A stretch of DNA of 32,000 nt from the NCBI GenBank assembly GCA_017521005.1, contig JAFXEC010000005.1, forward strand, positions 10,381 through 42,380. Direction: 5' to 3'. A model generated the notes under the pieces. It did no database searches and was not told the DNA's origin. It saw nothing but the letters and a program-made list of their open reading frames with translations. The DNA is from Clostridia bacterium (GTDB lineage Bacteria; Bacillota; Clostridia; TANB77; CAG-465). Made by a program: the position numbers and the translations under genes. The number at the start of each line of letters is the position of its first letter. Positions within the stretch are counted from its first letter, which is position 1. Shown here in pieces: positions 25,373 through 26,047 of the stretch.

Positions 25373-25406
25373 AACACCTAATCAATAAAGATTAGGTGTT
25401 TTTATT
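25373..25406 (+). terminator. intrinsic terminator after rplQ
   Basis: Perfect 10-bp stem AACACCTAAT / ATTAGGTGTT, loop caataaag, then TTTATT. Confidence 0.85.
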
Positions 25407-25433
25407 GACTTTGTTAACATAAAATGTTACAAT
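25405..25433 (+). promoter_or_regulatory. near-consensus promoter, TTGACT-17-TACAAT with TGn
   Basis: TTGACT 25405-25410, TGt 25425-25427, TACAAT 25428-25433. No protein gene follows on this strand. Confidence 0.65.
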
Positions 25434-25439
25434 ATTAGT

Positions 25440-26047
25440 GTATAAGAAAATCCTAATACACCTTACTAAGTGGAATGGATGAGTAATAGAATAAATTCTA
25501 TTTAGTGGTTTGACGTGGGATATTGCTTAGAATATGTATGGTATATGTACTAGGTATATATAGTATATGTATTTTTTAGTAGCGCATTACCTAGAATAGG
25601 GTAATGTTAAATCTGTTTATACGCAGATTTGAGCTGCTAAAATATGCATATATGCATAGATTAAAGCTTACTTTAACGCCATTACTTCTGACGGGTTAGT
25701 AGTAAAACATCAGACGCTATTATATCTGACGGGTTGGTAGAAAAACATCAGACACGGTTACAGGTGTAATGTAAGGTAAGATTGCCTAAAGATGCGTTAT
25801 GGTATCATACTATTTTGTACAGATTTTGTTTGAACAAAATCTGGCACCGTATTGTGATAGTCAAGCTATCACGATTGGAGACATAGGCGTTTCAGAGGCT
25901 CGCCTATACATTTTCTTAGTAATAGAATACGTACAAACCAACGCAAGCTAATTATTAAACAAACAACACACTTATATATTTAATGCTAACAACAATTAGC
26001 TTATATATAAAACCGCCAAGGAACTCCATGACGGTTATTTTTTTATT
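25440..26047 (+). ncRNA. candidate orphan structured ncRNA of about 600 nt (family unknown)
   Basis: No ORF of 60 codons or more in any frame. Promoter at the 5' end, hairpin plus T7 at the 3' end (26011-26047), and at least 9 discrete hairpins and internal repeats between them. Confidence 0.45.
25687..25754 (+). repeat. two tandem 30-nt modules, TCTGACGGGTT(A/G)GTAG(T/A)AAAACATCAGAC(G/A), period 38 nt
   Basis: Copies at 25687-25716 and 25725-25754, 27/30 identical. Each can fold as TCTGA...TCAGA. Confidence 0.8.

Follow-up and report, generated by a model that had tools for sequence, protein, structure and literature searches.

A probable gene for a structured noncoding RNA outside the families of Rfam 15, downstream of rplQ in uncultured Clostridia

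Introduction

Structured bacterial noncoding RNAs (ncRNAs) of several hundred nucleotides without an assigned function are rare, and OLE, ROOL, GOLLD and raiA have each opened new biology. The raiA motif RNA is, in size and lifestyle, the closest analogue of the element considered here, which lies in the gap between rplQ, the gene of ribosomal protein L17, and a convergent gene of the TmcAL family (hereafter tmcAL), in a 32-kb window (the whole stretch of Clostridia DNA that was analysed). We consider it quite probable that positions 25440-26047 of the + strand of this window form an independent gene for a structured ncRNA of a family outside Rfam 15, acting in the manner proposed below. Like raiA, OLE, ROOL and GOLLD, this unit belongs to Bacillota and stands alone with its own promoter and terminator and no associated open reading frame (ORF), and it combines covarying hairpins with invariant unpaired nucleotides and variable peripheral hairpins. 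It differs from them in that it matches none of their Rfam models, in its much narrower distribution (a single clade of gut Clostridia), in its size, which ranges from 364 to 714 nt through modular insertions, and in its conserved part, which covers about 95-300 nt and in which no multi-helix junction or pseudoknot has been demonstrated.

By its position, the unit also calls for comparison with the L17 downstream element (L17DE, RF01708; Weinberg et al. 2010), the one described RNA motif whose definition includes a place downstream of rplQ. L17DE is a structured RNA found immediately 3' of this gene, often without a following gene on the same strand; its range is restricted to Lactobacillales and Listeria, and the rplQ 3' untranslated region (UTR) is its proposed place of action (PMC2864571). 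Its strand was deduced from G-U pairs and its consensus contains GNRA tetraloops (PMC2864571). The present unit is likewise a structured RNA 3' of rplQ whose strand is indicated by G-U pairs. It differs, however, in that it is set apart from rplQ by a terminator and a promoter, in that it is found away from rplQ at three homologous loci (L084, L116 and L124), and in its core loops, which are YNAAG and UUUCAGAGGCU in place of GNRA. Membership in L17DE was rejected, since RF01708 gave no match to the window unit at E <= 10 and since the unit is neither always adjacent to rplQ nor placed behind it on a shared, terminator-free transcript.

Results

A core of three covarying hairpins

The family comprises 16 distinct members, namely the window unit and 15 homologues from related uncultured Clostridia (loci are designated below by L and a number). 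All of them share a core made of three adjacent hairpins, Pa, Pb and Pc, with the following positions in the window:

25820-25907, + strand: core of about 95 nt, common to 16 of 16 members
25820-25843, + strand: hairpin Pa, with near-invariant closing pairs CAG/CUG and a variable inner stem and loop
25844-25878, + strand: invariant GCA linker and hairpin Pb (25847-25878) of 14 pairs
25879-25910, + strand: AGACA linker, hairpin Pc (25883-25907) of 7 pairs with a loop of 11-12 nt, and a trailing ACA

Base pairs were counted on a MAFFT alignment of the 16 sequences that had not been fitted to the structure. In this alignment, 97.9% of the 421 base-pair cells of the core are paired, and 11 of the 27 pairs change on both sides, in 43 cells; when the 3' partners are slid by 1-3 columns, pairing falls to 30-39%. 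All three hairpins contribute to this pattern. Pa (6 pairs) is paired in 96.5% of cells, with both-side changes at three pairs. Pb, which has a CCG/UGG base, one bulged U and the apical motif UAG-YNAAG-CUA, is paired in 98.2% of cells and changes on both sides at 6 of its 14 pairs, its loop-closing pair being U-G, C-G or U-A according to the member. Pc is also paired in 98.2% of cells, with two pairs changed on both sides, and carries a loop in which CAGAGGCUC is invariant in 16 of 16 sequences and UCAGAGGCUC nearly so. The conserved unpaired nucleotides of the core are the GGCA junction, the Pb tip UAG-YNAAG-CUA, UUGG-G after Pb and the Pc loop UCAGAGGCUC. Compensatory substitutions across homologues, a general mark of structured ncRNAs, are present, and the conservation of sequence and structure in relatives that an earlier note on this DNA had proposed as a check was indeed found, with covariation in the core.

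The core contains 50 G-U cells, and pairing on the opposite strand would amount to only 86.5%. These G-U cells place the RNA on the + strand of the window, in agreement with the promoter and terminator described below. Folding energy, by contrast, does not distinguish the strands: it is -185 kcal/mol for the + strand, versus -129 +/- 7 kcal/mol in shuffles (z = -8.2), but the - strand folds about as well (z = -7.7). Folding of L112 gave z = -4.3. The core is also conserved beyond what neutral divergence leaves in the neighbouring gene, with 66-75% identity to the window where the third codon positions of tmcAL retain 47-55%.

Homologues, sizes and distribution

The members were gathered by three routes. 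An rplQ-based scan with one genome per species returned 80 loci, among which related intergenic DNA was present in the closest only: L001 is 88% identical across the whole spacer, and L002 and L003 share with the window spacer only a piece of 120-160 nt. L103-L113, L116-L118, L124 and L125 came from look-ups of TmcAL homologues whose identity ranged from 89% to 52%. Lastly, a metagenome scan with the pattern CTGGCACCG-N(36-52)-TCAGAGGCTCG gave 22 matches, of which 21 were high-GC chance matches and one, L084, was real. A covariance model of the core (118 positions) separates the family clearly, with members scoring 80-127 bits and the next best hit in about 600 kb of related loci 15 bits, and it finds one copy per locus. 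Applied to 76 further rplQ loci of other Clostridia, L004 and L033 among them, this model found no member; a scan of viral contigs gave 5 chance matches, 0 of which passed the core model.

The predicted length of the unit varies widely between members:

605-610 nt: window, L105, L103, L001 and L108
571 nt: L106
417 nt: L109
395 nt: L112
387 nt: L118
387 nt: L003
378 nt: L002
364 nt: L116
427 nt: L084
714 nt: L113

The usual size is 360-430 nt, below the size class of OLE and ROOL, in which the earlier note had placed the unit. The window unit reaches 605 nt because of a lineage-specific 5' hairpin domain and a 38-nt duplication, and L113 reaches 714 nt because of an insertion of about 220 nt. 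This insertion (L113, about 4230-4450, - strand) lies between core and terminator, contains long GC-rich hairpins and has no Rfam match.

Expression signals and boundaries

The unit is framed by a complete set of predicted signals, listed here with the two flanking genes:

24842-25366, + strand: rplQ, ribosomal protein L17 (TIGR00059 match)
25373-25406, + strand: rplQ intrinsic terminator, the upstream boundary (11-bp stem at 25373-25400, then a T-run)
25405-25433, + strand: sigma-70-type promoter TTGACT-17-TACAAT with an extended -10 (TG), 10 of 12 consensus positions
25440-26047, + strand: predicted transcript of about 605 nt, starting about 7 nt after the -10 and ending at the terminator T-run
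26011-26047, + strand: predicted intrinsic terminator (interrupted hairpin 26011-26036 followed by T7), -8.9 kcal/mol
26070-27251, - strand: convergent gene of a TmcAL-family nucleotidyltransferase (PRK13670/PF05636)

The signals described in the earlier note are all in place, namely the rplQ terminator with its 11-bp stem and T-run, the TTGACT-17-TACAAT promoter with TG, and the hairpin with T7, whose stem proved to be interrupted and which was for this reason not flagged by a simple terminator scan. The region has no excess of promoter-like sites (3 found versus 8.8 expected), and each of the 14 sequences analysed has a promoter at the 5' edge of the unit, in most cases with an extended -10. 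A terminator also stands 5' of the promoter of the unit in L002, L109, L113 and L118. A hairpin followed by a T-run is found at the 3' edge in every homologue, and in relatives the pairing of the unit terminator is kept through both-side changes at two pairs. For L124 and L125, promoter and terminator around the unit were read by eye. The ends of the transcript given above are those that this promoter and terminator predict.

Two observations concern these signals. The spacer between the -35 and the -10 is unusually conserved, even in distant members (GTT[A/T]ACATAA[A/T][A/G]TG; L105, L103, L001, L112 and others), and its part GTT(A/T)ACATAA recurs in most of the promoters. At window positions 25415-25429 this spacer forms a 6-3-6 inverted repeat, TAACAT-AAA-ATGTTA, which overlaps the extended -10; L112 has TTAACA-N5-TGTTAA. 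The inverted repeat could be an operator for a regulator. At the other end, the unit terminator abuts or overlaps the tmcAL stop in L003 (3955-3995, overlapping the stop codon), L002 (5065-5110) and the window (26011-26047). Because there are T-runs on both strands, this terminator is probably bidirectional and common to the unit and the convergent tmcAL-like gene.

Gene context and independence

At most loci the unit lies between rplQ and tmcAL, and this arrangement is variable. Other genes intervene between rplQ and the unit in L002, L106, L112, L118 and L125. In L084 the unit has prfB on one side and a convergent diacylglycerol-kinase-like gene on the other, and is linked to neither rplQ nor tmcAL. 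In L116 and L124 it is unlinked to rplQ and stands beside spo0A and a gene of 477-480 aa with no known identity; in L116, moreover, a separate promoter and small genes lie 3' of the unit and other genes separate it from tmcAL. The unit is a stand-alone gene, as its own promoter and terminator in the members and its changing neighbours indicate, and its link to rplQ is incidental. Such changes of neighbours exclude that the unit is part of the rplQ 3' UTR, a leader for some gene 3' of it, or an element tied to tmcAL. The earlier note had likewise argued that the unit was neither a leader nor a riboswitch, and this is upheld by its end at a terminator that faces a convergent gene and by the separate promoter found 3' of it in L116.

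The neighbourhood shows further particularities. The interval between rplQ and the RNA gene is an insertion hotspot: L112 carries there (5215-5559, - strand) an extra 114-aa S11-like gene (PF00411) among small ORFs of no known identity, and L106 a gene of an LRR_5 protein (4855-5724, - strand) between rplQ and the RNA gene. The L17 protein of the window has 174 aa, of which the best TIGR00059 stretch covers residues 79-174, and it appears to carry an insertion or N-terminal extension of about 60 aa; the extra stretch is common to many other Clostridia of the rplQ scan. Beyond tmcAL, a single ORF (window 27309-28388) encodes an RNase HI (residues 10-154) together with a RimL/RimJ-type acetyltransferase of the GNAT family (residues about 180-358), and this fusion adjoins tmcAL in all related loci.

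Modules outside the core

Outside the core, the window unit consists of the following parts:

25440-25675, + strand: lineage-specific 5' domain, a chain of hairpins (25485-25502, 25585-25606, 25609-25630, palindrome 25643-25658, 25661-25676)
25676-25713 and 25714-25751, + strand: two tandem 38-nt modules, 87% identical, each with a CUGA/UCAG stem and the loop CGGGUUGGUAGAAAAACA
25752-25819, + strand: central conserved region, with hairpin Pe at 25774-25787 (AGGUA-AGAU-UGCCU) and the string GAUGCGUUAUGGUAUCAUAC
25911-26010, + strand: 3' tail with the semi-conserved strings UAGUAAUA, CGUACAAACC (25930-25939) and ACGCAAG (25941-25947)

The hairpins that had been listed from the sequence were all recovered (25485-25502, 25585-25606, 25609-25630, 25661-25676, 25820-25843, 25851-25875 and 25883-25907 with its 11-nt loop), as was the 16-nt palindrome at 25643-25658. 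As a chain, they are real in the window but lie mostly in the 5' 235 nt, which are specific to close relatives; family-wide conservation is limited to the 3' core and parts of the centre. Indeed, the 5' domain (about 235 nt) is present in the window, L105, L103, L001, L108 and L106, and absent from L109 and all short forms; within the window clade the pairing of its hairpins is kept, with few both-side changes. The tandem modules measure 38 nt each over 25676-25751, and not 30 nt as the earlier note had it. L106 and L109 have one copy of the module and the window lineage has two, through a recent duplication; the GUUGGUAG part of the module is found again in L118.

The central region is conserved in the window clade, L109, L112, L118 and L125 and is not recognisable in L002, L084 and L116. 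In the sequences that keep it, Pe reads AGG(U/C)A-N4-UGCCU, its sole variation being U-G to C-G. The short forms have in common a 5' GUGCAAGA, a covarying hairpin, the motif AUACGUAAUG-GUCU-AAU-AGAC and a 3' string CCG.A.AAAC...CGUAAG.AUAU. The window also contains an exact 12-nt direct repeat, AGTAATAGAATA, at 25482-25493 and 25918-25929, of which the first copy serves as the 5' arm in hairpin 25485-25502; the second copy could compete with it for the arm 25495-25502, in an alternative pairing that would join the 5' domain to the 3' tail.

Helices between distant parts of the unit were also considered. RNAalifold on the window clade pairs UGGUUUGACG with CGUACAAACCA, and on this model the 3' tail may pair over a long range with 25506-25515, which is not established. 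L109, read by eye, has GUUUUG/CAAAAC, one apparent compensatory change for UGGUUUGACG/CGUACAAACCA, but the position of its 5' strand is not homologous. When the flanks were paired with RNAduplex, the registers were inconsistent. Several helices proposed by eye fit some sequences and are broken in others, and were rejected: GAUGCGU/ACGCA, UUAUG/CGUAA, the Pa loop GCUAGU with the 3' tail, the Pc loop with GCCU, and 5' AUACGU with 3' ACGUAAG-AUAU.

Coding capacity and mobility

As the earlier note had stated, no frame of the 703 nt between the two genes (25367-26069) reaches 60 codons. The longest ORF, of 50 codons (25799-25951, + strand), overlaps the core and has no Shine-Dalgarno sequence. Among 14 homologues examined it is kept in five and truncated or frame-shifted in nine (L001, L106, L109, L118, L003, L002, L116, L084 and L113), and the conserved core itself contains 1-nt indels. 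A Pfam search with the ten longest stop-to-stop segments (28-53 aa) gave no match. The unit has no conserved coding capacity, as is generally expected of a structured ncRNA, and the small ORF was rejected as the product of the locus on the grounds of its poor conservation, its lack of a Shine-Dalgarno sequence and the core indels. The possibility of a decayed gene, raised earlier, was examined with the same results: no Pfam match, a long ORF broken in most homologues and 1-nt indels in the core. A mobile repeat was rejected as well, with one copy per locus and no match of the unit by blastn in plasmid and phage collections.

Comparison with known RNA families

Rfam 15 holds 4227 models, including OLE, ROOL, GOLLD, HEARO, raiA, 6S, RNase P, tmRNA, SRP, T-box and Intron_gpII. 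At the gathering score, no model matched the window unit or 10 homologue loci. At E <= 10 the window unit gave only noise, at 11-19 bits versus thresholds of 40-70 bits, and the scans at this level of the window unit, L112 and L113 taken together gave hairpin and terminator noise at 9-29 bits. A tmRNA combines a tRNA-like domain with a reading frame for a tag peptide; ARAGORN found neither tRNA nor tmRNA in the window. The Rfam scan suggested earlier, with OLE, ROOL, GOLLD, HEARO, raiA and 6S, thus returns no family, and the absence of RNase P, tmRNA, SRP and 6S signatures that had been noted by eye agrees with the lack of any match to the models of these families at E <= 10 in the three members and of any tmRNA by ARAGORN. 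RNase P, tmRNA, SRP, 6S and T-box were accordingly rejected as identities, none having an Rfam match. Among 200 of the 408 supplementary files of Fremin and Bhatt (2021), and in a full-text literature search, the strings of the core were absent. The RNA gene is a member of no family in Rfam 15 and belongs to a known general kind, the orphan structured bacterial ncRNAs. The sole gathering-level Rfam match in the window is elsewhere, at 5619-5700, where an S10-Clostridia leader (RF03136) stands upstream of the S10 operon.

Two catalytic RNAs were compared more closely. Group II introns have a domain V with a GNRA loop and a 2-nt bulge on the 3' strand and a domain VI with a bulged A, and their GUGYG...AY ends lie in exons. 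Pb resembles domain V in its size (about 34 nt, 14 bp) and its start, CCGUAU, and a second hairpin comes next, beyond a short linker and near a ...UAC end. However, Pb has a YNAAG and not a GNRA loop, and its bulge is on the 5' strand; the stem of Pc has no bulge; there are no signatures of domains I-IV, no intron-encoded protein and no exon context, the unit starting at a promoter. Intron_gpII gave no match at E <= 10 in the window unit, L112 or L113, and a group II intron remnant was rejected, given the wrong loop and bulge of Pb, the lack of a branch-point A in Pc and the absence of this match. In RNase P RNA, the universally conserved P4 strands are of the GGAAAGUCC type in CR-I and of the ACAGAA...GGCUUA type in CR-V. 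On reading the 16 sequences, neither these P4 strings nor a tRNA-like end was seen, and no RNase P model matched at E <= 10.

Discussion

The earlier proposal of a candidate structured ncRNA downstream of rplQ is supported by the conservation of the unit, the covariation of its core, its own signals, its noncoding character and the lack of an Rfam family. For its mode of action, we propose the following. A strong housekeeping-type promoter with an extended -10 would fire just 3' of the rplQ terminator and ensure constitutive transcription, and the transcript would stop at its own intrinsic terminator, facing the convergent tmcAL-like gene. The RNA would act in trans, through a folded surface that is made of the invariant Pb tip, Pc loop and junctions and binds a partner, most likely a protein, and it would work as a ribonucleoprotein. 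The variable 5' part would stabilise or space the core. The region 5' of the core is an expandable scaffold of hairpin modules, which has grown in the window lineage via the 235-nt domain and the 38-nt duplication. Invariant loops on covarying stems, together with free peripheral expansion, are indeed expected of ribonucleoprotein or tertiary-structured RNAs, and classic seed-pairing small RNAs (sRNAs) are usually shorter than about 200 nt. With somewhat less assurance than for the gene itself, we lean towards a broader view in which the family is an undescribed class of 360-714-nt RNAs of a gut Clostridia lineage, with a core that would adopt a specific tertiary structure having its own biochemical role, whether as the core of a ribonucleoprotein, as a sensor of ligands or proteins, or through catalysis or self-assembly.

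Several points weigh against this proposal. The pairing values of the core were reached by 0 of 500 shuffles, but the 16 sequences are related and this control overstates significance, the slid-column control being the fairer one. For the short form L084, the gain in stability over shuffles is only slight (z = -2.1). When every pair of columns in the extended alignment was scanned, only Pb and Pc were recovered and no conserved long-range helix; the support is for local hairpins only, and an ornate global fold goes beyond the evidence. The promoter and terminator are sequence predictions, and the protein-binding role is argued by analogy with other RNAs. Finally, in the next relatives, L004 and L033 (75-79% L17 identity), no element was found beside rplQ, nor was one found beside tmcAL in L114 and L115 (50% TmcAL identity), and the family looks confined to one narrow clade of uncultured low-GC Clostridia, with TmcAL at about 52% BLASTP identity or more to that of the window.

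The main mechanistic rival is a base-pairing regulatory RNA, whose Pc loop UCAGAGGCUC would be a seed for messenger RNAs or, being Shine-Dalgarno-like (AGAGG), for the 3' end of 16S ribosomal RNA, the rest of the molecule serving as a stabilising scaffold. The loop has the expected behaviour, CAGAGGCUC being invariant in 16 of 16 sequences (and UCAGAGGCUC nearly so) on a stem that covaries, and the unit stands alone with a terminator at its end, like classic sRNAs. Its 360-714 nt and its several other conserved unpaired motifs are nevertheless far above what a seed-bearing sRNA typically has, and a search of the 32-kb window found no site complementary to the Pc loop except its own opposite strand; we regard this rival as unlikely. 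The same conserved core bears on the possibility that the spacer is neutral or selfish DNA, a hairpin-rich stretch, a repeat resembling a miniature inverted-repeat transposable element or a recombination site, that folds by chance. The spacer is AT-rich with many palindromes, its - strand reaches z = -7.7, and its 5' domain evolves through duplication and insertion. Such DNA would not be expected, however, to show compensatory changes and a strand-specific G-U pattern, and the core is conserved above synonymous sites, is present in a single copy per locus and has no match in plasmid and phage collections, which makes this reading very improbable.

The remaining alternatives would make the unit part of something already known. 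A cis element, acting in L17 feedback from the rplQ 3' UTR or as an antisense or 3'-UTR element of tmcAL, would suit the position of the unit between rplQ and tmcAL at most loci and has the precedent of L17DE downstream of rplQ (PMC2864571). It is largely refuted by the changes of context, with intervening genes in L002, L106, L112, L118 and L125, L084 unlinked to both genes, and L116 unlinked to rplQ with genes between unit and tmcAL; a terminator and then a separate promoter come after rplQ and before the unit, there is no match to the L17DE model, and the G-U pattern indicates the strand opposite to tmcAL. We give this explanation hardly any weight, and no more to a diverged RNase P, 6S, tmRNA or SRP RNA, or an ORF-less group II intron remnant in which Pb and Pc would be domains V and VI. 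The short forms do have the length, 360-430 nt, of an RNase P RNA or a tmRNA, the CCGUAU start of Pb is superficially domain V-like, and several short forms start with GUGCA; set against this are the lack of any Rfam match at E <= 10 in three members, the negative ARAGORN search for tmRNA, the lack of P4 strings or a tRNA-like end on reading the sequences, a Pb without GNRA loop and with its bulge on the 5' strand, a Pc without bulged branch-point A, and a unit that starts at a promoter with no exon. Least likely of all are one or more small proteins or a decayed protein gene. The 50-codon ORF (25799-25951) that runs over the core is kept in 5 of the 14 homologues examined, but it has no Shine-Dalgarno sequence and is broken in the other nine, the core contains 1-nt indels, Pfam gave no match, and substitutions in the stems are compensatory and not codon-like.

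Conclusion

An independent gene for a structured RNA would account for the 700-nt gene-free gap beside a ribosomal protein operon, in organisms that are known from metagenome bins only and whose RNA has not been reached by culture-based RNA sequencing or by curated RNA libraries. As long as wider searches do not enlarge the family, the narrow distribution restricts the general importance of this RNA; the covariance model of the core can be used to find more members. Interest is tempered by this distribution and by a complex global fold that is unproven, but clean covariation, an invariant core and size variants make the RNA a good experimental target. It is indeed tractable, with an invariant core of about 95 nt showing clear covariation, natural versions of 364 nt and 714 nt and a recent internal duplication; these natural size variants and the duplication define the parts that can be trimmed for structure probing or cryo-electron microscopy. 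If the broader view of an undescribed RNA class is true, the 5' half of the window unit would show an RNA architecture growing by module duplication in real time.

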